A stretch of DNA of 10,084 bases. Origin: Nanopusillaceae archaeon (GTDB lineage Archaea > Nanobdellota > Nanobdellia > Nanobdellales > Nanobdellaceae). The notes beneath the pieces were generated by a model that was given only the letters and a program-made list of their open reading frames with translations, was not told the origin of the DNA and did not search any database. Both the position numbers and the translations under genes were made by a program. The stretch spans positions 1-10,084 of the forward strand of contig JBMFJD010000016.1 in assembly GCA_049974095.1 (NCBI GenBank). The letters run 5' to 3'. Shown here piece by piece: positions 552 through 10,084 of this stretch. Each line of letters opens with the position of its first letter. Within the stretch, counting starts at the first letter, position 1.

Positions 552-3260
552 CTATTTCTTTATTTGCTTGATTATTTCTTTTATTGATTCGGCAGATTGT
601 TTCCATGCCTCAAACATCCATATAAGTCCTTTAATTATATATGGTCCAAAGAATATAAATAGTACAAGCATTATTATACCACTTACTCCAACTGCTGTTA
701 TCACTTTTTCAAAGAATTGATCTATAGCTGTAAATATACCAATTGTTATTGTTGGACCTGTATATACTTTATTATTATTTATAGATATTGTAAAGTAATA
801 CTTACCATCACTTAATGATACAGGACATGATGCAGATGCTGTTCCATATGCTGGTATATTAACAACATCTGAACATGATTGTAATACTTGTGAACCTAAT
901 CCTAAGAATCCTCCTGAACTTACTATGTCTATTTTGACAACCAATCCACTAGCTGGTACGTCTAATGTATTAGCCAATGTTGCGTTTACATAATAAGTAC
1001 CTGGTGACCATACACCTCCTGTTATTTCATATCCATTAGAAGTATACCATGCTGCATTAGATACTACAACTTTAGTAGTAGCTACTTGTTGTTGAGTTAT
1101 AACACCAGGTCCTTGCCTGTTTGGTGGGAATGTACCTAAGTTCTGTCCATTAGCAGATACTACAAGGTAGAACATTTCTTGATGCAATAGCGAGTTCTGA
1201 TCTGGAGTAAATGATGCACATACTGTTACATTTTGATTTGGTTGTATAGTTACAGTAGTAGTATTAGATCCATATTCATTATTTGCAATGCCACCTTGTA
1301 ATCCTAAGACATTATATCCATATACAGTTACAGTAACTGTTGCTGTTGTTGGATATGGAGATGTTAATATAGCACATCCTTCTGCTGGTATTCCTTCAAC
1401 TAATTGATTTACATATGTTTGATTTCCTTGAGCAAAGTAATATCCTTCTACAGATATTATTGATGTAGGTTGTTGTACTACATTCAATTGTGGTCCTGCA
1501 TAATCAGTTCCTGGTATACCGAATATTTGTCCTACATCTGATGCTACATATTTATAATTAATATATGGTGATTGATAATATACATCGAAGTGATAATTAC
1601 CTGATGATGCAAAGGTAACGGGTAATGATACTTGTTGAGATCCTCCTGATGGTATATTAATATTAAATGATTGTGATGTAATTGCCTGATCTGGAGATAA
1701 TGGTATATTCTTTCTAACTGTTATAGTTACCTGTCCTACATATGTACAGTTCCTTGAATTCACAAAGTATGCTACTGCATCTACTTGTTGTCCTATTTGT
1801 ATTGATGTTATATACGTACCATTTATCTCCCATGCAGTGTATGCTAATGGTGGAGCATCAGTACAATATCCAGCTGTTGTTTGTCCACTTTGTACAGTAA
1901 ATGCTCCAAGTAGAGATTCTGGACCTAAGTTTTCATCTGGTAAATATTGTAGGTCATATTTTGGTAATGCATATACATAATATGCACCTGGTTGTTGGGG
2001 TACAAATGTTATAGTAATATTATAGAATCTTTGAACATTATATGGTTGTGGCGAGAAGTAATAGTTTGCAGACATATCTGTAGTTACTCCTTGATCTCCG
2101 ATTCTATATGATGCTACAGTATTACCATTAACATCTTTAATATATACATATAGAGCCGGACCATATGCACCTCCAGATATAACTGTTAAGTATAGAGGTA
2201 TATTTATAGTAACTGATTGCTCAACCAATGGGTTTTGTGGAGATATTTTTACTTGTCCTATTTGTACAGATACCTGTGGACTTGTAGATACTGTAGTTGC
2301 ATTTTGTGGTGGAGATGAGGCTGGACTTACAGATATAGAACCTACTAATGTCTTAGATCCAATTGTTGAATCTGACCAGTATTGTATTGAATATTTAGGT
2401 TCTATATAAACATAGTATGTTCCTTGAGTTGGAGGTATAAACCATACAGATATATTATAGTATCTCCATGTGTTTGTAGGAGTATAACTAAAGTAATAGT
2501 TTGTAGAAGAATCTGTAGTTATACCTTGTTGTCCAACTCTAAAGTATTGTATTACATTACCAGATGAATCTTGTATATATACATTAAGGTAAGGACCATA
2601 TGGACCTCCAGATATAACATCTAATGCTATTGGTATATATATCGTAACATTCTCACCTGCATGTGGAGATGATGGTACTACAGTTATTGGTCCATTAACA
2701 TTTATTTTAACATCTGGAGATGTAGATAATGATTGATTTGTAGTTGTTGGGGTAGGTGAAGGAGTAGGTGAAGGTGATGGAGTAATACTAGGAACAGTAA
2801 TTGTATATGTTTGTGTACCTAATGTAGTATCTGAACCATCTGCAATATCAACTGCCATTTGTACCTGAACTTGATATGTTCCAGGTTGTAGATTAAGGTT
2901 TACGTAATCGGTTCCAGATATAGGTTGACCATTAAATGAATATGGAATATCACATGATGTAGATGTTAATGAACAAACAGAACCATTAGTACCAGTTCTT
3001 ATTGCATCTATTTGTTGACCTTGGGTATTGTATACAAATACTCTAAAAAATAATCCTCTTCCACATGGAGATATTAATGGTATACAATAACTATTAACAC
3101 CAGAATAAGAATATGATATAATTAGATATGGATTTTGAAATGTAGCATTAAATGAATAAGAATTAGTTGTTTCTGCAGAGTGAATACTATGAGAAAATAA
3201 ACTAATTGAAAATATAATTATTATTACTCCTAGAAATTTCTTCAAAAAAGATAATTTCAT
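552..3260 (-). CDS. Large exported surface protein (902 aa) with a C-terminal membrane anchor and multiple beta-sandwich (Ig/CARDB-like) modules; likely N-glycosylated
   Basis: ATG at 3258-3260. N-terminal signal peptide MKLSFLKKFLGVIIIIFSISLFSHSIHSA/E (nt 3174-3260). PSPSPTPSPTPTTT linker (nt 2715-2786). C-terminal hydrophobic helix AVGVSGIIMLVLFIFFGPYII (nt 633-695) followed by the basic tail KQSAESIKEIIKQIKK. I count 13 N-x-S/T sequons by hand. There are 10 Cys in even-numbered groups. Module signatures such as P-x-x-P-x-x-GE-x-VTI ... G-x-Y-x-[FV] resemble CARDB/Ig-like domains (pattern recognition only). Confidence 0.85.
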   Translation of the reverse strand: MKLSFLKKFLGVIIIIFSISLFSHSIHSAETTNSYSFNATFQNPYLIISYSYSGVNSYCIPLISPCGRGLFFRVFVYNTQGQQIDAIRTGTNGSVCSLTSTSCDIPYSFNGQPISGTDYVNLNLQPGTYQVQVQMAVDIADGSDTTLGTQTYTITVPSITPSPSPTPSPTPTTTNQSLSTSPDVKINVNGPITVVPSSPHAGENVTIYIPIALDVISGGPYGPYLNVYIQDSSGNVIQYFRVGQQGITTDSSTNYYFSYTPTNTWRYYNISVWFIPPTQGTYYVYIEPKYSIQYWSDSTIGSKTLVGSISVSPASSPPQNATTVSTSPQVSVQIGQVKISPQNPLVEQSVTINIPLYLTVISGGAYGPALYVYIKDVNGNTVASYRIGDQGVTTDMSANYYFSPQPYNVQRFYNITITFVPQQPGAYYVYALPKYDLQYLPDENLGPESLLGAFTVQSGQTTAGYCTDAPPLAYTAWEINGTYITSIQIGQQVDAVAYFVNSRNCTYVGQVTITVRKNIPLSPDQAITSQSFNINIPSGGSQQVSLPVTFASSGNYHFDVYYQSPYINYKYVASDVGQIFGIPGTDYAGPQLNVVQQPTSIISVEGYYFAQGNQTYVNQLVEGIPAEGCAILTSPYPTTATVTVTVYGYNVLGLQGGIANNEYGSNTTTVTIQPNQNVTVCASFTPDQNSLLHQEMFYLVVSANGQNLGTFPPNRQGPGVITQQQVATTKVVVSNAAWYTSNGYEITGGVWSPGTYYVNATLANTLDVPASGLVVKIDIVSSGGFLGLGSQVLQSCSDVVNIPAYGTASASCPVSLSDGKYYFTISINNNKVYTGPTITIGIFTAIDQFFEKVITAVGVSGIIMLVLFIFFGPYIIKGLIWMFEAWKQSAESIKEIIKQIKK
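1890..2729 (-). repeat. In-frame tandem duplication of a Cys-free module of about 130-135 aa inside the 902-aa gene (copy 1 nt 2325-2729, copy 2 nt 1890-2288; period 145 aa = 435 nt)
   Basis: Copy 1 (aa 178-312): ...GENVTIYIPIALDVISGGPYGPYLNVYIQDSSGNVIQYFRVGQQGITTDSSTNYYF...YYNISVWFIPPTQGTYYVYIEPKY. Copy 2 (aa 325-457): ...EQSVTINIPLYLTVISGGAYGPALYVYIKDVNGNTVASYRIGDQGVTTDMSANYYF...FYNITITFVPQQPGAYYVYALPKY. The DNA-level echo ggaccatatgGacctccagatataac (from 2593) and ggaccatatgCacctccagatataac (from 2158) is offset by exactly 435 nt. Confidence 0.85.
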
Positions 3261-3262
3261 GA

Positions 3263-3859
3263 TTAGCTATAACAGCTTGGCGCATTCGTAGCTTCACATG
3301 CACTAGCCAATTGTGATATAGTTGATGTCATAAATAAGTATTCTCCATTATATTGACAGAATGTTACATTTTCTCCACCAACATTTACTAATACCACATT
3401 ACCAGGACATACTGCATAATTAATATATGTTGGAGATACTTCAAATATATAGTGTCCAATTTGTACCAATGGTAAAGTTGTATATGCTGGATTTTGTGCT
3501 TGAACTTGTTGTAGCATTGCTTGTCCTTGAGAAGTATCTACATTAATACCAATTGGATTAATTCCATATTGTTGTAATATCTGTCCTACATAATTAGCTT
3601 CCTGTTGTTGGTATGTATAGAAGTATATCTTACCAGTTAATTGTAATGATCCTCCTACTACTTGAGAATTAACTTGTGGTGTATTTACTGGTTGTACATA
3701 TGGTTGTTGTACAGCTACATTATTTACATAAAATAGGGTACTGCCCTGTGTCGTAATATATGCTAACCCTGCTATACCTGCAAGAACTAATAACATAGCT
3801 AATAACTTTTCATCCATAATACTTATATTATATTTAGTATATTTATATTTTCGCTTCAA
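3263..3859 (-). CDS. Signal-anchored, Gln-rich extracytoplasmic protein with a possible degenerate thioredoxin/glutaredoxin-like fold and a C-terminal 4-Cys domain
   Basis: The start listed in the ORF track is TTG (plus-strand caa at 3857-3859), overlapping the upstream stop as TTGA. An alternative ATG at 3815-3817 gives MDEKLLAMLLVLAGIAGLAYI. Single TM helix LLAMLLVLAGIAGLAYI. 22 Gln in 198 aa by hand count. Stop TAA 3263-3265 lies 2 nt before the next gene's ATG. Confidence 0.75.
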   Translation of the reverse strand: MKRKYKYTKYNISIMDEKLLAMLLVLAGIAGLAYITTQGSTLFYVNNVAVQQPYVQPVNTPQVNSQVVGGSLQLTGKIYFYTYQQQEANYVGQILQQYGINPIGINVDTSQGQAMLQQVQAQNPAYTTLPLVQIGHYIFEVSPTYINYAVCPGNVVLVNVGGENVTFCQYNGEYLFMTSTISQLASACEATNAPSCYS

Positions 3860-4371
3860 GATTTTTGAGGTGTGCTATTATCCTTGAATTTTGATAATAA
3901 TTGATCAACATTAGATAATACTTTCAAAAGTTCTTTTCTTTCATCTTCAGAAAGCATATCATATAACTTACAATAACCAGGTTGTAAGGTCTTTTGATTA
4001 ACATAAGGACATTCTTTTGCAAAAGGACAATTAAAAACTCTTAAACCAACCAAAGGAGCCTCGCCATTATTCGCAACCATATAAGGAACTATAACTGTAC
4101 CTGTTTTGGTACATGTAATTCCTGATGGTACTAATCTTTTGACTTTTATTCTTCTAGTATACTTAGTATCCTTATAATTAACTTCAATATTTTTTTCATC
4201 AATATATATAGCTATAACATTCATTTCCTTTAACTGCTTTATTAGGACAGATATTGTAGACATTGGTAAATTGAATTTCTTTGCAAGTTCAGAAATTGTA
4301 ATACCTGGCTGTGAATATATCGCTTGCAGAATTTCGATTAATGTTTTAGTAGAGTCTATCCTACTGATCAT
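3856..4371 (-). CDS. Winged helix-turn-helix (MarR/ArsR-like) DNA-binding regulator with a C-terminal 4-Cys domain
   Basis: The N-terminus TKTLIEILQAIYSQPGITISELAKKFNLPMSTISVLIKQLKEMNVIAI (nt 4204-4344) fits the wHTH pattern I-L-x-x-L-x(3-5)-G-x-T-x-x-E-L-A-x-x-x-x-x-x-x-S-T-[IV]-S-x-x-[IL]-x-x-L. The C-terminal part has C87, C115, C121, C134 (NCPFAKECPY...GYC) and a K/E-rich helix. ATG 4369-4371 overlaps the upstream stop as ATGA. No TM segment. Confidence 0.8.
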   Translation of the reverse strand: MISRIDSTKTLIEILQAIYSQPGITISELAKKFNLPMSTISVLIKQLKEMNVIAIYIDEKNIEVNYKDTKYTRRIKVKRLVPSGITCTKTGTVIVPYMVANNGEAPLVGLRVFNCPFAKECPYVNQKTLQPGYCKLYDMLSEDERKELLKVLSNVDQLLSKFKDNSTPQKS

Positions 4372-4646
4372 GTTACATTAACAATATTATATACCTGTAC
4401 ACAAGATGTATCCCCACATATTAGGGTATTCTTTGCAACTAAACACTGCTCTCCACTAATGTTTTGTGTACATGCATATAAATTGCCATATACATTATAT
4501 ACGTATATATTAAAGCTGCCTATTTGATATGTGCCTACAAGATTTATCTTATGGAAATACTGCTCTCCAATAAAAACCACTATAGAAATAATGAGGAGTA
4601 TTGCTATTAAGATAACCAACAAAGTTTGCTTATTGATTTTCACCAT
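4368..4646 (-). CDS. Small signal-anchored protein with an extracytoplasmic 4-Cys beta-rich domain; first gene of the minus-strand operon
   Basis: ATG 4644-4646. MVKINKQ followed by the TM helix TLLVILIAILLIISIVVFI. The ectodomain carries YGNLYACTQNISGEQC...CGDTSC. Stop TGA 4368-4370 overlaps the next ATG. Confidence 0.7.
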   Translation of the reverse strand: MVKINKQTLLVILIAILLIISIVVFIGEQYFHKINLVGTYQIGSFNIYVYNVYGNLYACTQNISGEQCLVAKNTLICGDTSCVQVYNIVNVT

Positions 4647-4656
4647 AATATAATAT

Positions 4657-4666
4657 TTTAAATAAC
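4657..4666 (+). promoter_or_regulatory. Candidate TATA box (TTTTAAATAA) for the MCM-like gene; implies a leaderless mRNA
   Basis: Centre is about 24 nt upstream of the ATG at 4685, matching the usual archaeal TATA-to-TSS distance if transcription starts at or near the ATG. No SD-like motif lies between. The background is AT-rich, so specificity is limited. Confidence 0.4.
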
Positions 4667-4676
4667 AAATATAAAT
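4667..4676 (-). promoter_or_regulatory. Candidate TATA box (minus strand ATTTATATTT) for the 92aa-171aa-198aa-902aa operon; implies a leaderless mRNA
   Basis: Centre is about 25-26 nt upstream of the ATG at 4646 on the minus strand. It directly abuts the candidate plus-strand TATA box inside a 38-bp divergent intergenic region. Confidence 0.4.
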
Positions 4677-4684
4677 ATTTATTT

Positions 4685-5860
4685 ATGGAAAATGAAACAA
4701 GATTGAAGAACCTGTCTTCAAAAATTTTGAAGTTATTAGATCTATTAGAAAACTATGAGTATGAATATTTAAGATATATAAATAGTATTAATATACCGAT
4801 ATATTCTGATCTAGTAATATTCAAGGAAGATGCTTTAAGTATCTTGGGAGTAGATGACTATAAGTATTTATTAGAAAATGGAATAATTAGAGAGAATATA
4901 TTTAATCCAAGAATTGTAGAAATAGTTAATATAAATAAATTATTGGATATGATCAGTTTGTACAAAGAGATGAAGAAATATTCATTATCAAAAGAAATAC
5001 TACAATCTGATAGGCCATTTTATGAATTATTACCATTAGTATCACCAAATGTAAAGAATACGGATATAATAGAGGTTGTAAAGAAAGTAATGTTATTACA
5101 ACTATTTTCTGGAGACGATAGAGGTTTTAGAACAAGAATACATATAGCTCTAATTGGAGATCCTGGTACTGGTAAAACTTTATTATTACAATGGCAGAGT
5201 GATATAAGTGGAGGATTATATTTATCATTAAGAACTACATCTGCAGGTCTATCTGGCAGCCTAGATCCAGCACAATTTTATAACAATTCACCACCATTAA
5301 TGGCTGCAAATGGAAAAATATTATGTATAGATGAAGCAGATAAGATATCTACATCAGATTTAGATCCATTATTAACTGCAATGGAAGAAGGAAAAGTTGT
5401 TCTAGCTGGTGCAGGATTACATTATGAGTATGAAGCTAAAGTTAGAATTATGTTATCATCTAACAGAAAGAAGTTCAGACCAGAACTAATGGATAGATTT
5501 GATTTAGTTGCATTATTTAGAAAACCATCAAAAAAAGAAACTGCAGACATTGTAGGACATATTATTGAATTTACAAGTGAAGAAAATCAAAGAATTCTAG
5601 AAGAAAGTAAAACAACAATAAATAATTATATGAAGTATGTAGAAAAGTTCTATCCAAAAATCATGGATAATGATGCTGTTAAGGAGGCAATAGCAGATAT
5701 AATAGAAAAGACTGGAGAATCTAGTGTTAGACATACATTAAAATGGTTAAGATTTGCTTATGCATATGCTAAAATAAATAGAGTAAATATAACACCAGAA
5801 ATAGTAAAAGAATTATATGATATGCTAAAAATACAAAGAATAAATCTTACTCAAGAGTAA
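4685..5860 (+). CDS. mcm: Truncated (mini) MCM-family AAA+ ATPase/helicase lacking the canonical MCM N-terminal domain
   Basis: Motif-by-motif match to the MCM catalytic core. LLQLFSG (MCM LLLQLFGG). RIHIALIGDPGTGKT, Walker A, nt 5156-5179 (MCM INILLVGDPGTAKS). TSAGLSGSL (MCM SAAGLTAAV). ILCIDEADK, Walker B, nt 5321-5341 (MCM CCIDEFDKM). LLTAMEEGKVVLAGAGL (MCM IHEAMEQQTISIAKAGI). Sensor-1 SSN at aa 258-260. Arg finger MDRFDL with R271 at nt 5495-5497 (MCM LSRFDL). Sensor-2/lid SSVRHTLKWLRFAYAYAKINRVNITPEIV (MCM TVRQLESLIRLSEAHAKMRLS). Only about 120 aa precede the core, whereas cellular MCMs have about 250-300 aa carrying the OB-fold and Zn finger. Confidence 0.85.
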   Translation: MENETRLKNLSSKILKLLDLLENYEYEYLRYINSINIPIYSDLVIFKEDALSILGVDDYKYLLENGIIRENIFNPRIVEIVNINKLLDMISLYKEMKKYSLSKEILQSDRPFYELLPLVSPNVKNTDIIEVVKKVMLLQLFSGDDRGFRTRIHIALIGDPGTGKTLLLQWQSDISGGLYLSLRTTSAGLSGSLDPAQFYNNSPPLMAANGKILCIDEADKISTSDLDPLLTAMEEGKVVLAGAGLHYEYEAKVRIMLSSNRKKFRPELMDRFDLVALFRKPSKKETADIVGHIIEFTSEENQRILEESKTTINNYMKYVEKFYPKIMDNDAVKEAIADIIEKTGESSVRHTLKWLRFAYAYAKINRVNITPEIVKELYDMLKIQRINLTQE

Positions 5861-6119
5861 TTATTCTCATTATCCCCCAACCAATTAGATATCCAGACAT
5901 ATAAAATATAAACCAATCAAAACCTGTACCAATTATAAACAAAGGATTTAATTGGAACATCAAGAAGGATACAAAAGCAGAGGAGTATATAATTAATAGT
6001 GCAGCATGAATTTTATCTAATATATCCGAAGCTTTTGATAACCATCCACCAACATATATACCTACACCTAATAATATTAGATCAATAATTACAGAAATTT
6101 GAAAAAATATAATGTTCAT
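5847..6119 (-). CDS. Small integral membrane protein with three predicted TM helices
   Basis: ATG 6117-6119 overlaps the upstream stop as ATGA. Hydrophobic segments are IIFFQISVIIDLILLGVGIYVGGW, AALLIIYSSAFVSFLMF and FIFYMSGYLIGWGIM. The 3' end overlaps the convergent MCM-like gene by 14 nt. A purine-rich tract GAGGAAGAGCAGGAAGA lies immediately upstream of the ATG (weakly SD-like). Confidence 0.65.
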   Translation of the reverse strand: MNIIFFQISVIIDLILLGVGIYVGGWLSKASDILDKIHAALLIIYSSAFVSFLMFQLNPLFIIGTGFDWFIFYMSGYLIGWGIMRIITLE

Positions 6120-6445
6120 TCTTCCTGCTCTTCCTCTGAATTACCTTGTACTAATGATAATTTACTAATCGCTTTCTGTACGGAAGATATATTTAATCCT
6201 ACATTAGATGATCTCTTTACTATTTCAGATAAGTTATCTAACAGTACATAACATAATCTTTCTCCTCCTTTTCCTGTAAATGAGAATTGTGGTTCACCAT
6301 CACCAAATACTATTTCACATCTTCTTTTTGCTTGCGATGGATCTTCTGATCCTATTGGCAATGTACTTAGATCATATGCGTAGCAAACTAGCCTATCTCC
6401 TACTTTCTTACATCCTATAGAAATTTTATCGTCGTATAGCGCCAT
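6116..6445 (-). CDS. Soluble 109-aa protein of unknown function with 4 Cys and an acidic C-terminal tail (SEEEQEE)
   Basis: ATG 6443-6445 with a TATA-like box about 26 nt upstream. No TM segment. Cys at positions 12, 21, 43 and 65. Translationally coupled (ATGA) to the downstream 3-TM gene. Confidence 0.7.
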   Translation of the reverse strand: MALYDDKISIGCKKVGDRLVCYAYDLSTLPIGSEDPSQAKRRCEIVFGDGEPQFSFTGKGGERLCYVLLDNLSEIVKRSSNVGLNISSVQKAISKLSLVQGNSEEEQEE

Positions 6446-6467
6446 ATAATATATTTATTATTATGTA

Positions 6468-6474
6468 TTATAAA
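6468..6474 (-). promoter_or_regulatory. Candidate TATA box (minus strand TTTATAA, preceded by the purine/A-rich ACAAAAG as a possible BRE) for the 109aa-90aa unit
   Basis: Lies in the 52-bp intergenic region 6446-6497. Its centre is about 26 nt upstream of the ATG at 6445, which implies a leaderless transcript. Confidence 0.45.
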
Positions 6475-6497
6475 CTTTTGTTATCATGAACAATGGT

Positions 6498-7205
6498 CTA
6501 TACATAGATATATTTAATTTCAAATGATAATGGTATATTGCCTTGTGTTGCTATTGAGTATAGCTCATACATAAAGTCTATGGATACTTTATAGACGTAT
6601 AGAAATATACCAATTGGTGGAGGTATAACATATGCTATCTTTCCAGATACATCTTGCACAGGAACTACTTCTGTAGAGTTATCATAGACCCTTAATAGTA
6701 TAACATCCGTTCCATTATATTCTATATACTTATGACAAATATATGATTGCTCACCATATACATTCTGAGTATGACATAATACATTACCATAGTATGCCGG
6801 AGAATAGAATAGTATAGATAATGCAAAGAATATGGTACCTAGAAAGAATGATATTATACTATATAATAGATATTTCTCTTCTTGTAATGTTAATAATACT
6901 ACTCCAGAGATTGTTAGGGCTACTGCTACCGATAAAAAGAAATATGCTAAACCATATAAAAAATTAAACATTGGAGGATTAGTACCCAAATAAAACATAG
7001 GAGATAAAGAATTAACAGTAACTATCATAGAACCAGGTAATATCAAAGAATATTTTGTATTAACATAAGGAAATGTATAATTATAACTTAAGGATATACT
7101 AAATGAAGGAGCTACAGTTACAAATTTATAGATAAATGCAACTAAAAATATATTTAGAAATATAAACAAAAATATAAATAAAATAAAAAAATACGAAAGT
7201 TTCAT
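6498..7205 (-). CDS. Polytopic membrane protein (3 predicted TM helices) with an extracytoplasmic C-terminal domain of about 100 aa carrying a Cys motif
   Basis: ATG 7203-7205. TM segments are FFILFIFLFIFLNIFLVAFIY, FLYGLAYFFLSVAVALTISGVVLLTL and LLYSIISFFLGTIFFALSILFY, with the short cytoplasmic loop QEEKY between TM2 and TM3. The C-terminal domain contains YGNVLCHTQNVYGEQSYIC (nt 6735-6791). Confidence 0.7.
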   Translation of the reverse strand: MKLSYFFILFIFLFIFLNIFLVAFIYKFVTVAPSFSISLSYNYTFPYVNTKYSLILPGSMIVTVNSLSPMFYLGTNPPMFNFLYGLAYFFLSVAVALTISGVVLLTLQEEKYLLYSIISFFLGTIFFALSILFYSPAYYGNVLCHTQNVYGEQSYICHKYIEYNGTDVILLRVYDNSTEVVPVQDVSGKIAYVIPPPIGIFLYVYKVSIDFMYELYSIATQGNIPLSFEIKYIYV

Positions 7206-7209
7206 TAAG

Positions 7210-7641
7210 CTATAGTAATGCTCCTAATATTGCTCCAACACCAAAAACTCCACCTACAAATAATCCAGTAATTCCTTGATTTACTGCATTACCGAATAAT
7301 GTTGCTACATTAGAGAATGATATTGTTATTGGCCCTGTAATTGCGTATGGTGTTTGTACTGATATTAAAAATGGTGATACAAATCCTATTACACCAAATA
7401 TTGCTGCCAATAAAAATATTCCATATAATGGATGTGTATGCAGATAGTCACTAATTGTTGGTATATACCTTTTAACCAAAAATCCTGTTACTAAACCTGC
7501 TAATATTATTGTCATCCATGCTGCTATAGATGTTAGATGCAATATTGCCAATACTATATCTACTACTATTACTGAGGCTATTGCAAATAACAAAAAAGTT
7601 ACAAATTGGCTCGATGTTATTCTATCTAATATTGTTGCCAT
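7210..7641 (-). CDS. Integral membrane protein (about 4 TM helices) ending in a glycine-zipper helix
   Basis: ATG 7639-7641 with a TATA-like box about 25 nt upstream. Hydrophobic segments are FVTFLLFAIASVIVVDIVLAIL, IAAWMTIILAGLVTGFLV, LYGIFLLAAIFGVIGFVSPFLI and the C-terminal GITGLFVGGVFGVGAILGALL (nt 7213-7281). Stop TAG at 7210-7212 is 4 nt before the next ATG. Confidence 0.7.
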   Translation of the reverse strand: MATILDRITSSQFVTFLLFAIASVIVVDIVLAILHLTSIAAWMTIILAGLVTGFLVKRYIPTISDYLHTHPLYGIFLLAAIFGVIGFVSPFLISVQTPYAITGPITISFSNVATLFGNAVNQGITGLFVGGVFGVGAILGALL

Positions 7642-7693: not shown

Positions 7694-10084
7694 CTATAGG
7701 GCTCTTCTTTTATATAAGTAGTATCCAACACCTGCGGCTGCTAATATAGCTAAGAATGCTAATGCTATTGGTAATGGTGCTTGTACTCCAATTGCTGCAG
7801 CTGTAGGAGAAACTGGAGCTGATGGAACAGATGGAACAATTGGAGATGGAGCTGGACCTACAGGAACTACAGTAATGCTAGTAGATGAAACAGTAACTTG
7901 GTATTGATATGAACTAGATAATCCGGATGGATCTTCTGCAGTAATTGTTAATGTACCAGATTCTTGTGGTATGTTCAATCCTACATTTACTGTTTGTCCT
8001 GAATATACTACACCAGAATATATATCTTGAGTACTAGATGATGTTTGATATGTTATAGTTACATATACTGTCTTATATGGACTATATACTGTAAATGTTA
8101 CTGGGAATGGACTTGTATAATTGCTTGGTACTATTATAGATAGTAGTTGTGGTGGTTGCAATGCAATTTGAGATGTTGTGAAACATAGACCTGCAACACA
8201 TGTACCAGAACATGATTGTATATCATTCAATTGATAATATATTCTACCAGTAGAATTATCATATACTATTTGATATTCCGCTATACTTCCATTTGGTGTA
8301 CATACAGGTATTATCATTCCGTTAAATGAGGATAATTGTGATTGATTAGCTGCATTACCTATTACACATCTAAATGGAGCTACTTGTAATAGATACATAG
8401 ATGATGTAGTTCCAGATGTTGTTGGTGTTAATGCATATTGATATACAGATACAGCATCTGGACCACATTCATTAGCAAATAATAATGATGGTACACTTAC
8501 TTGATTCTCATTATATAACGATCCTGCGAAACAGTATTGTCCTGGCATTGCTGGGAATTCCTGAGTAATATTATATACACATTGTCCATTTACTACAGAG
8601 TAATTAACAACCGCTGCTAATGTACTAGATAAACATACATATGGAATACCACATTCGTTTGATACTTGTGGTATATATCCTGTTTGTACAGTAAATGTTA
8701 TAGTTGTTGAATTTGTAGTATTAGCTACATCACTACATGTTATTACCAATGTATTTGTTCCAGGTTGGATTGATACTGGGATAGTATATGGTGTACTTAC
8801 ATTGAATATTTGTTGTAATATTATATTGTTATTATATACTAAGGTACATGAAACTTGTGATTGAACAGTATCATTTACACTAAATGATACATTTACTGAT
8901 CCTCCAACAGTTCTAACAGTTTGTCCTTGTTTTGGATATGTTACATTTATTAATAATTGTGGAGATATTGGTGCAGTTACACATTGTCCGTATGAACAGA
9001 ATGTTCCTGATGGACAGGTTGTTGTACTTACTATTGTTTGATTTACTGTACCTAATGATGTAGGATCTATTGGAGGTACATTTACAGTACAGTAATATTG
9101 TACATATGCTAATGTTGTTGAATTCAAACATATATATCCTGGTGGAGGTACATCGTTATTATTTACACATTGTCCAGATGGTATTGGTACTAATGAACAT
9201 GTTGATGAGTTAAAGTATGTAGCATTTGGATATCCAGTAACCATAGATGGTACTGCTTGTCCTGCAATTAATCCACAACATGTACCTACTCCAGGATATC
9301 CACCCAATGCTTTACAGTATAGATTACATGATGATGCATTATATGCATAAAATATAGATTGTGATGTAATTAATGATAAATTACCAACAATACATGATAA
9401 TTGTACATTGTATACTCCTTGAGTTAATCCTGCTAAGTTTAATGGTACTTGTCCATTATATATTGGTCCCTCATATGTAAATGTTACAGAATTAGATGTA
9501 GATGTAGCTCCTGTAGTAGGACCACATGAGGACATTAAATTAGCAGTTGCAGTACAGGTAACTTGTGTTGGAGTACCAATATAGCCAGATAATGTAAAGT
9601 ATACTGTCGCACTACTACTACTTATTATTGGATATCCAACAGAATATGGTACAGTTGTTGTTGGCTGTATTGATGTAATTTGTAATGATGGAGGAACAAC
9701 TATATTTACGTTTATAGATGAACTTGTTTCATTTACACAGTTATTAGAGTATTGATAAACTACAAGTACTGTAATGTTATATGATCCTGGAGATAGTATT
9801 GTAACATTAAATGGTATTGATTGACCTGCAACAGATGGTGCAAATATACCATTAATATATAATTGTCCATTTAGGTATACTCCAATTGCAATTGTAGATA
9901 GGTTTAATCCTAATTGTGCAAGATTATTTTGTACTTTTAAAGTAAATGTTTGTCCAGCATAGAAGGTAGACCCGTTTGCTGGAGATAATATATTAACAAT
10001 TGGTGCATAACATGCTGTAGTTATTGTATAATTAGATACATTTTGTTGGGGAATTGGTGCTGTTGCTGTAGATAAATTATATGG
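7694..10084 (-). CDS. Very large Cys-rich, sequon-rich surface protein (at least 796 aa in the window) with a C-terminal membrane anchor; the 5' end lies beyond the window
   Basis: The ORF track starts at the Met at 9535. I translated 9536-10084 by hand in the same frame and found 183 further sense codons with no in-phase TTA/CTA/TCA on the plus strand (...APIVNILSPANGSTFYAGQTFTLKVQ...VVPPSLQITSIQPTTTVPYSV...QVTCTATANL-MSSCGPTT). The C-terminus has the S/P-rich stalk PVGPAPSPIVPSVPSAPVSPT (nt 7802-7870), the TM helix APLPIALAFLAILAAAGVGYYL (nt 7715-7780) and then KRRAL. There are 18 N-x-S/T sequons in the last 613 aa by hand count. Confidence 0.85.
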   Translation of the reverse strand, partial: PYNLSTATAPIPQQNVSNYTITTACYAPIVNILSPANGSTFYAGQTFTLKVQNNLAQLGLNLSTIAIGVYLNGQLYINGIFAPSVAGQSIPFNVTILSPGSYNITVLVVYQYSNNCVNETSSSINVNIVVPPSLQITSIQPTTTVPYSVGYPIISSSSATVYFTLSGYIGTPTQVTCTATANLMSSCGPTTGATSTSNSVTFTYEGPIYNGQVPLNLAGLTQGVYNVQLSCIVGNLSLITSQSIFYAYNASSCNLYCKALGGYPGVGTCCGLIAGQAVPSMVTGYPNATYFNSSTCSLVPIPSGQCVNNNDVPPPGYICLNSTTLAYVQYYCTVNVPPIDPTSLGTVNQTIVSTTTCPSGTFCSYGQCVTAPISPQLLINVTYPKQGQTVRTVGGSVNVSFSVNDTVQSQVSCTLVYNNNIILQQIFNVSTPYTIPVSIQPGTNTLVITCSDVANTTNSTTITFTVQTGYIPQVSNECGIPYVCLSSTLAAVVNYSVVNGQCVYNITQEFPAMPGQYCFAGSLYNENQVSVPSLLFANECGPDAVSVYQYALTPTTSGTTSSMYLLQVAPFRCVIGNAANQSQLSSFNGMIIPVCTPNGSIAEYQIVYDNSTGRIYYQLNDIQSCSGTCVAGLCFTTSQIALQPPQLLSIIVPSNYTSPFPVTFTVYSPYKTVYVTITYQTSSSTQDIYSGVVYSGQTVNVGLNIPQESGTLTITAEDPSGLSSSYQYQVTVSSTSITVVPVGPAPSPIVPSVPSAPVSPTAAAIGVQAPLPIALAFLAILAAAGVGYYLYKRRAL

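Follow-up and report, generated by a model that had tools for sequence, protein, structure and literature searches.

The contig JBMFJD010000016.1 of a Nanopusillaceae archaeon (assembly GCA_049974095.1), analyzed here over its entire length of 10,084 bp and called the window below, carries at one end most of a gene for a predicted membrane-anchored protein built of immunoglobulin-like (Ig-like) and cysteine-rich modules. A preliminary description of this DNA had drawn attention to the open frame at 7694 to 10084 on the minus strand and to the alternation of Cys-rich and Ig-like modules on an anchor. Both points were borne out: the frame is open up to the window edge and closes with a TAG stop codon at 7694-7696 (796 codons), and the alternation is recovered by AlphaFold2 (AF2) structure prediction and by family alignments. 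The gene runs past the window edge, and the fragment represents the C-terminal 796 residues of a protein of ~960 residues. Contig L009 matches the entire window at 94% identity, and the orthologue that it encodes is 959 aa long, has 91% protein identity, and aligns through its residues 164-959 with residues 1-796 of the window protein; the window therefore lacks 163 N-terminal residues, including the signal peptide. The L009 orthologue, like the other full-length members, begins with a Sec-type signal peptide (MDRKVLIILGILSIPVLAISA). Since full-length homologues from eight clusters measure 946-969 aa, the protein is not the giant that had been proposed, and the annotated start Met turned out to be M184 of the frame, an internal residue within the second Ig-like module. 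Taken from sequence and model together, the protein is a secreted type-I membrane protein of ~959 aa.

An AF2 run on the window protein, made with an alignment of eight sequences, reached a mean predicted local distance difference test score (pLDDT) of 68. It shows four beta-sandwiches at aa 28-129, 133-246, 377-466, and 646-741 of the 796-aa frame, mostly at pLDDT 75-90, two all-beta Cys-rich hairpin regions at aa ~250-370 and 475-640, and a disordered Pro-rich stalk followed by a transmembrane (TM) helix at aa 771-795. As read from sequence and model, the order from the N to the C terminus is signal peptide, variable head of ~165 aa, two Ig-like sandwiches, a first Cys module (CysA, consisting of a CCG subdomain and one hairpin unit), a third sandwich, a second Cys module of three hairpin units (CysB), a fourth sandwich, Pro-rich stalk, TM helix, and KRR tail. 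The features that lie in the window, all on the minus strand, are the following.

10010..10084, minus: end of the N-terminal head and linker, last 25 residues (frame open to the edge; L009 orthologue)
9698..10009, minus: Ig-like module 1, aa 26-129, with the Cys pair C25/C116 (AF2 strands 29-129, pLDDT ~80-90)
9335..9697, minus: Ig-like module 2, aa 130-250, holding M184, the pair C177/C231, and C187 (AF2 strands 133-246)
9176..9334, minus: N-terminal subdomain of CysA, aa 251-303, LYC..GGY...CCG...YPN.TY...TCS, with four conserved Cys and C253 (family alignment)
8975..9175, minus: Cys unit A, aa 304-370, with 6 of 8 Cys, C2 and C5 being replaced by V312 and V347, and ending in CPSGTFCSYGQC, which holds C6, C7, and C8 (unit profile at aa 305-369, 49.5 bits)
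8675..8974, minus: Ig-like module 3, aa 371-470, with the conserved pair C413/C450 (AF2 strands 377-466)
8510..8674, minus: Cys unit B1, aa 471-525, with 4 of 8 Cys, namely C478, C484, C502, and C518 (unit profile at aa 477-522, 26.0 bits)
8330..8509, minus: Cys unit B2, aa 526-585, strongly degenerate, with C540 and C573 only, the C3-C7 pair (family alignment A4 only)
8165..8329, minus: Cys unit B3, aa 586-640, with 4 Cys, namely C595, C625, C629, and C634, ending in CSGTCVAGLC (unit profile at aa 594-635, 14.4 bits)
7859..8164, minus: Ig-like module 4, aa 641-742, without Cys (AF2 strands 646-741)
7775..7858, minus: Pro/Ser/Ala-rich stalk with a conserved P-T-A-A-A-I (AF2 pLDDT <50 at aa 745-775)
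7694..7774, minus: C-terminal TM helix, basic tail KRRAL, and stop codon (AF2 helix 771-795)

The four modules taken as Ig-like each open with a short hydrophobic stretch (APIVNILSP, VPPSLQITSI, ISPQLLINV, and QPPQLLSII) that forms the first strand of one predicted beta-sandwich. The preliminary description had placed two of these modules upstream of its start Met and had noted stretches of a "P-x-Q-L-L" type; all four stretches are present in the sequence. The sandwiches have 6-7 strands each, in keeping with a seven-stranded beta-sandwich fold, and their Foldseek matches are chains of multiple Ig or MG domains. A search of the PDB with the whole model returned only generic chains of this kind (C3, A2M), at a template modeling score of ~0.12, and was uninformative on the Cys modules. 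In Pfam, sandwich 1 of the window protein scores 22.1 bits against Big_7, just short of the cutoff of 24.1. Relatives pass this cutoff (57.7 bits in P0015, 40.9 in P0014, and 29.5 in P0011), P0015 further matches PKD with 34.3 bits, and among the relatives the equivalents of sandwiches 1, 3, and 4 all have above-threshold matches. For module 1, the equivalent exceeds the Big_7 cutoff in P0015, for example, with the score just given; for module 3, Big_7 is found at aa 517-590 of P0011; and for module 4, both Big_7 and PKD are found in P0014 and P0015. The Cys pairs of the sandwiches are conserved: C177 and C231 of module 2 are present in 14/14 sequences, and C413 and C450 of module 3 in 14/14 and 15/15. 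The latter pair had been likened to the classical disulfide between Ig strands B and F. The pair itself is real and conserved, but a classical B-F geometry finds no support here, because the two residues are only 37 positions apart and lie on the third and sixth predicted strands. C177 and C231 occupy equivalent strand positions in sandwich 2.

The nature of the Cys-rich modules became clear from distant relatives. When 1.84 billion representative proteins were searched exhaustively with a profile, ~8 real relatives emerged besides the profile's own members, the rest of the hits matching the Ig modules alone. Five real relatives (P0011, P0012, P0014, P0015, and the fragment P0016) are 23-24% identical to the window protein and far richer in Cys. 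Read from them, CysB consists of three tandem units of ~55 aa with the pattern C-x2-D-x-DC-x4-W-x-C-x9-Y-x-C-x2-G-x-C-x9-C-x2-G-x2-C-x2-G-x-C, and CysA of a separate N-terminal subdomain (YC..GG.W...CCGDDPGE...TCS in the distant relatives) followed by one such unit. The count of 11 Cys in the first module and 10 in the second had been given correctly, and the module Cys are invariant in eight homologues, down to 34% identity. In the CCG subdomain, C257, C269, C270, and C296 occur in 14/14 family members. A repeated pair of one Cys-knot and one Ig module had been proposed; the repetition is genuine, but the entity that repeats is the eight-Cys hairpin unit of ~55 aa, in one copy in CysA and three in CysB. 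The C-x-GT-type closing motif corresponds to Cys6-Cys7-Cys8 of this unit. The regular expression suggested for both modules fits CPSGTFCSYGQC and fails on CSGTCVAGLC, where one residue stands between Cys and GT. The three occurrences of GQCV, correctly noted, fall at non-equivalent unit positions (C1, C8, and C5).

Homology between the units rests on several lines of evidence. A hidden Markov model (HMM) of the unit, built from the distant proteins only, matched the window protein with 81 bits and located units A, B1, and B3 at the positions and scores listed above. None of 500 shuffled versions of the window protein gave a match, nor did 16 hits that contain Ig modules only or the other families among 201 neighboring open reading frames. 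Unit B2 lies below the detection of this HMM, and distant members carry a full eight-Cys unit in its alignment columns (alignment A4). In hhalign, residues 65-118 of CysA aligned with residues 10-53 of CysB, i.e., unit A with unit B1, with a probability of 86% and an E value of 5e-6. The two modules thus align significantly at the level of these units and not from end to end (E 0.17), because CysA holds one unit and CysB three. Structure prediction, too, shows discrete repeated modules, both in the window protein and in P0014. In the AF2 models, the unit begins with a short strand, continues with a long beta-hairpin, and is closed by a second, short hairpin. In unit A, a hairpin at 316-332 is followed by a strand at 345-356 and a short hairpin at 362-369; in unit B3, a hairpin at 600-624 is followed by a short hairpin at 628-635; and the canonical three-unit region of P0014 was modeled at pLDDT 85 as three identical repeats of the same architecture.

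Every module of every full-length sequence contains an even number of Cys, and the four hairpin units carry 2, 4, 6, or 8. Furthermore, Cys columns vanish in pairs with identical patterns of presence and absence at equivalent unit positions: C2/C5 are missing from units A and B3 (in unit A these are alignment columns 560 and 600, lost together), C1/C4 and C6/C8 from unit B1, and all but C3/C7 from unit B2. These paired losses are explained by a single consistent connectivity, and we therefore propose that the disulfides of the unit are C1-C4, C2-C5, C3-C7, and C6-C8. In the distant group, units A, B1, and B2, which are paralogous, all show the eight-Cys pattern, and it is for this reason most simply regarded as ancestral. 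The window lineage, with 6, 4, 2, and 4 Cys in units A, B1, B2, and B3, would then have lost disulfides from an apparently ancestral four-disulfide unit, a polarity that we deduce from this distribution. Outside the units, the eight sequences that have C187 in sandwich 2 are also those that have C253, where CysA begins, a pattern suggestive of a bridge between the two modules; with this bridge, all 28 Cys of the fragment fit 14 pairs. Zinc binding by these Cys was considered and rejected on three grounds: secretion of the protein, the lack of CxxC pairs, and Cys counts that are strictly even and vary pairwise.

The preliminary description had not recognized the Cys module as any described family, and our searches agree. 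A Pfam scan of the eight-Cys unit in five canonical relatives gave, at E≤1, noise only (Defensin_3 at 0.017, Nodulin_late at 0.66, and Dickkopf_N at 0.75); NCBIfam gave at the same threshold no match to the unit, canonical or degenerate; and searches of PDB sequences with profiles of CysA, CysB, and the canonical unit gave either nothing or noise at E>0.5. With the pLDDT-85 three-unit model, Foldseek found in the PDB at best an E value of 0.046 at a template modeling score of 0.18 (WD40 blades) and in BFVD at best an E value of 0.011; as Foldseek is weak on small disulfide-rich domains, this is no strong exclusion. Nothing relevant was found in the literature on Cys-rich surface proteins of DPANN archaea. 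The Cys-rich element is thus apparently an undescribed four-disulfide hairpin repeat of ~55 aa, present in one plus three copies, all of them partly decayed. As a kind, modular surface glycoproteins with an anchor and Ig-like domains are already familiar.

Several properties point to a surface-exposed ectodomain. The protein contains 26 N-x-S/T sequons against 12.4 ± 3.0 expected, a number reached by none of 2,000 composition-preserving shuffles. No such excess is seen in the rest of the window's proteins, and the modular protein is probably heavily glycosylated. Mean pairwise identity is lowest in the N-terminal region (35%) and highest in the Cys modules (~60%). At the other end, a hydrophobic stretch followed by R or K is found at the C terminus of 15/15 family members. 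No match to a known S-layer family appeared in Pfam or NCBIfam, searched with the window protein and five relatives, or among PDB sequences, and no archaeosortase or PGF-CTERM sorting signal was detected among the NCBIfam CTERM models at E≤1. Of note, a motif P-[TS]-[AG]-A-A-[IV] lies 6-18 residues ahead of the TM helix (window 7790-7810, minus strand, aa 759-765) and is kept family-wide, even at 23% identity, in an otherwise variable stalk. The motif may mark a site of processing or sorting; it matched none of the NCBIfam C-terminal sorting models.

The remainder of the window is occupied by genes that accompany the modular protein elsewhere.

552-3260, minus: second anchored protein, 902 aa, with signal peptide and C-terminal anchor (sequence)
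3856-4371, minus: MarR/HTH_24 winged-helix protein, 171 aa (Pfam)
4685-5860, plus: short MCM-like AAA+ ATPase, 391 aa, oriented divergently to the gene of the modular protein (Pfam MCM P-loop, 86.7 bits, aa 106-295 only)
5847-7641, minus: four small genes of 143, 235, 109, and 90 aa, downstream of the gene of the modular protein, three of them predicted to encode multi-TM proteins

This gene order is shared with contigs of 20.6, 28.0, 28.7, and 31.1 kb, the last three being Ga0395593_050736, Ga0453806_37478, and WOZZ01055038, respectively. The MCM-like ATPase is the best-conserved gene, with 42-96% identity across 15 clusters. The stop and start codons of the four small genes overlap or nearly abut, and the four are conserved in L001, L002, L006, and L009 and match no family. 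Upstream of the modular gene, beyond the right edge of the window, adjoins a partner gene of 683-853 aa with an N-terminal anchor (12626-15187, minus strand, in L009; 7948-9999, plus strand, in L007). This partner overlaps the start codon of the modular gene in the same four contigs and ends 2 nt before it in L007, where its C terminus scores 22.8 bits against DUF2341, for a threshold of 23.4. At the distant locus L007/L008, six genes are kept in order, encoding a 179-aa protein, the upstream partner, the modular protein, the MCM-like ATPase, a ~230-aa protein, and the winged helix-turn-helix (wHTH) protein. The modular protein is only 24% identical there and the MCM-like ATPase 48%, and the pair of partner and modular protein is retained. 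On the syntenic contigs there are essentially two clear Pfam hits, the MCM-like ATPase and the MarR-type wHTH protein, along with one protein that has weak Ig-like matches, and a PALP gene in L006 and L009. No tRNA and no housekeeping genes were found on these contigs (20-23 kb, four loci), and searches with PHROGs and Pfam gave no informative matches for 10 further element proteins.

Some of these genes deserve a comment of their own. The 902-aa protein carries an internal tandem duplication of ~132 aa (~2325-2720 and 1890-2282; 48% identity, E 8e-44); no similarity to the modular protein and no sequon enrichment were found in it. The MarR-type wHTH protein has a C-terminal four-Cys extension (C..C...C....C), which may be a metal-binding or sensing domain, and is conserved in L007 at 28% identity. 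The PALP-family (pyridoxal-phosphate enzyme) gene occurs in the subgroup to which the window belongs, between conserved element genes (L006, 20489-21373, minus strand, 294 aa, full length; L009, 622-1149, plus strand, 175 aa), and looks like an accessory gene acquired by the element. In L007, positions 2673-7186 encode a full-length MCM of 891 aa and a 435-aa protein that matches both the small and the large primase subunit, directly before the shared module. Since the primase gene overlaps the first shared gene, these two may be genes of an enlarged form of the element and not chromosomal ones.

Neither the modular protein nor the MCM-like ATPase was found in 185,579 GTDB representative genomes, where the pattern scan for the former reaches only relatives that keep ECGIPYVC or LYCxAxxGY. 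The MCM-like ATPase has remote matches only, at 22-31% identity to MCMs of haloarchaeal, Methanocaldococcus, and Altiarchaeum viruses in the phage collection, and one in Methanosarcinales in GTDB. In one NCBI metagenome-assembled genome (MAG) labeled Nanopusillaceae archaeon (ACP5GJ), both genes are present twice, in divergent copies that lie on contigs of 28.7 and 59.9 kb. Synteny, gene content, absence from the collections searched, and the copies in the MAG together point to a mobile element of ~30 kb, viral or plasmid in nature, that is associated with Nanopusillaceae and related DPANN archaea.

Our current working hypothesis, to which we give an even chance of being correct, is that the modular protein is an attachment spike or adhesin encoded by this element and equipped with a variable N-terminal head. 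The modules would form a stiff, glycan-coated rod that holds a fast-evolving head off the membrane, and the head would recognize the surface of a partner. The gene would be a core gene of the ~30-kb element, paired with that of the upstream membrane protein of ~700-850 aa, and the spike would project from the envelope of a virion or from the cell that carries the element. We favor a rigid surface spike because of the type-I topology, the dense sequons, the disulfide-stapled rod, and the status of the gene as a core gene of a mobile element. The anatomy, i.e., signal peptide, TM anchor, sequons at twice the expected number, and a variable membrane-distal head, is likewise consistent with the adhesin or receptor-binding role suggested in the preliminary description. 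In a wider form, which we regard as possible but doubtful, the window would be a genome segment of enveloped viruses or virus-like elements that form a hitherto undescribed family in Nanopusillaceae and related DPANN archaea, the protein would be their receptor-binding spike, and the eight-Cys unit would represent a novel extracellular fold, its disulfides having been shed pairwise, from 8 Cys to 6, 4, or 2, in a hot, acidic lineage.

A number of observations weigh against this hypothesis or limit it. We infer the binding, surface location, glycosylation, and disulfides of the protein, all four, and the window does not include the head domain. The alignments comprise 8-15 sequences and are thus shallow, AF2 confidence is low in the CCG subdomain (pLDDT 42-54) and in unit B2 (pLDDT 28-41), and the paired Cys losses track clades, so that one or a few evolutionary events stand behind each Cys pair. 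In ~23 kb of the element, PHROGs and Pfam revealed no gene for a capsid, a packaging ATPase, an integrase, or conjugation. Apart from the remote MCM matches, neither the modular protein nor the MCM-like ATPase occurs in IMG/VR or in the phage collection, which leaves the term virus unproven, and a chromosomal island is conceivable because two of the contigs were assigned by NCBI to a Nanopusillaceae MAG.

That last point bears on an alternative that we consider unlikely, namely that the protein is a chromosomal surface protein of the nanoarchaeon, S-layer-like or an adhesin that holds its Sulfolobales or Acidilobus host, and that the region is a variable genomic island. Two homologues with their adjoining MCM-like genes are annotated in the MAG mentioned above, one of them on the 59.9-kb contig, which is longer than the others; the L007 module adjoins a full-length MCM and a primase; and a length of ~950 aa with signal peptide, C-terminal anchor, and dense sequons is also usual in archaeal S-layer and adhesin glycoproteins, as is generally known. 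Against a chromosomal origin, the pattern scans of GTDB species-representative genomes recovered no relative of either gene, the four loci lack housekeeping genes over 20-23 kb, and the MAG holds two copies, each ~45% identical to the window protein. The missing S-layer match speaks against an S-layer protein, and the MCM and primase of L007 may themselves be element genes, as the overlap with the first shared gene indicates.

A different role on the same element, in membrane fusion and entry or in superinfection exclusion, would make the rod of Cys and Ig modules purely structural and dispense with a receptor-binding head. We find this improbable. It would agree with the retention of a core gene next to an upstream membrane partner and downstream small multi-TM proteins, and with the Cys modules being the most conserved part of the protein. 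A very weak match to Phlebovirus_G1 (16.1 bits for a cutoff of 25) could be cited in its favor, but it lies below threshold, covers ~50 residues of Cys pattern, and was rejected as noise of that pattern. Moreover, AF2 predicts an all-beta, rod-like ectodomain with no helical-bundle or fusion-loop module, Foldseek gave for the whole model only the generic multi-Ig chains described above, and the steep gradient of variability toward the N-terminal head fits recognition better. Finally, the Cys modules might have been a chance pattern in a compositionally biased reading frame, with no real repeat. The biased composition, with S, T, V, P, and N making up 49% of the residues, and a BLAST self-comparison of the window protein that shows no internal repeat would allow for this, but we attach practically no probability to it: the conservation of the module Cys to 34% identity, the 81-bit match of the unit HMM against none in 500 shuffles, and the superimposable repeats of P0014 at pLDDT 85 rule it out.

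The proposed attachment spike shares parts of its design with known systems. Prokaryotic Big_7/PKD surface adhesins (Pfam PF17957 and PF00801) are likewise secreted, rod-like, anchored proteins of Ig-like sandwiches, and three of the four modules studied here reach the Big_7 or PKD threshold in at least one family member; unlike our protein, they lack an interleaved Cys-rich hairpin repeat, and the window copy stays just under the Big_7 cutoff. Archaeal S-layer and stalk glycoproteins anchored at the C terminus include the Haloferax S-layer glycoprotein, SlaB of Sulfolobales, and tetrabrachion of Staphylothermus. They have in common with our protein a signal peptide, a large glycosylated ectodomain (predicted in our case), a Pro/Thr-rich stalk, and a single C-terminal TM segment with a basic tail. 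The protein differs from them in having no S-layer or PGF-CTERM match and no coiled coil, in its context resembling a mobile element, and in its absence from representative genomes. The Cys unit recalls the cysteine-rich domains of TNFR, the furin-like and GCC2_GCC3 repeats, and the laminin-type EGF domains of eukaryotes, small multi-disulfide beta-hairpin units that form rigid extracellular rods in tandem, and its closing motif, C-x2-G-x2-C-x2-G-x-C, is EGF-like in look; it is longer than these (~55 aa, 8 Cys), has a pattern of its own, and has no Pfam or Foldseek match. As to the element, Nanoarchaeota virus 1 (NAV1) is, to our knowledge, the only described virus of hot-spring Nanoarchaeota. 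Its genome is reportedly circular, ~35.6 kb long, and made up mostly of genes of unknown function, a size similar in scale to that of the 28-31-kb contigs found here. No NAV1 sequence turned up in the collections searched. The source that PMC8407392 and PMC10384203 give for this virus is Munson-McGee et al. (2020, J Virol 94:e01213-19).

The scope of these findings is narrow, comprising ~20 sequence clusters, and the function of the protein is one that we infer. Within this scope, the Cys unit is a compact and apparently undescribed extracellular repeat, the disulfide map of which can be read from paired Cys losses, and its natural series of 8, 6, 4, and 2 Cys on one fold should be useful for studying how the dependence on disulfides is lost. 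We know of very few mobile elements of DPANN archaea and Nanoarchaeota, and of none with a characterized attachment protein. With its variable head and conserved rod, the family described here is a concrete candidate for the means by which such an element may recognize an ultra-small ectosymbiotic archaeon.

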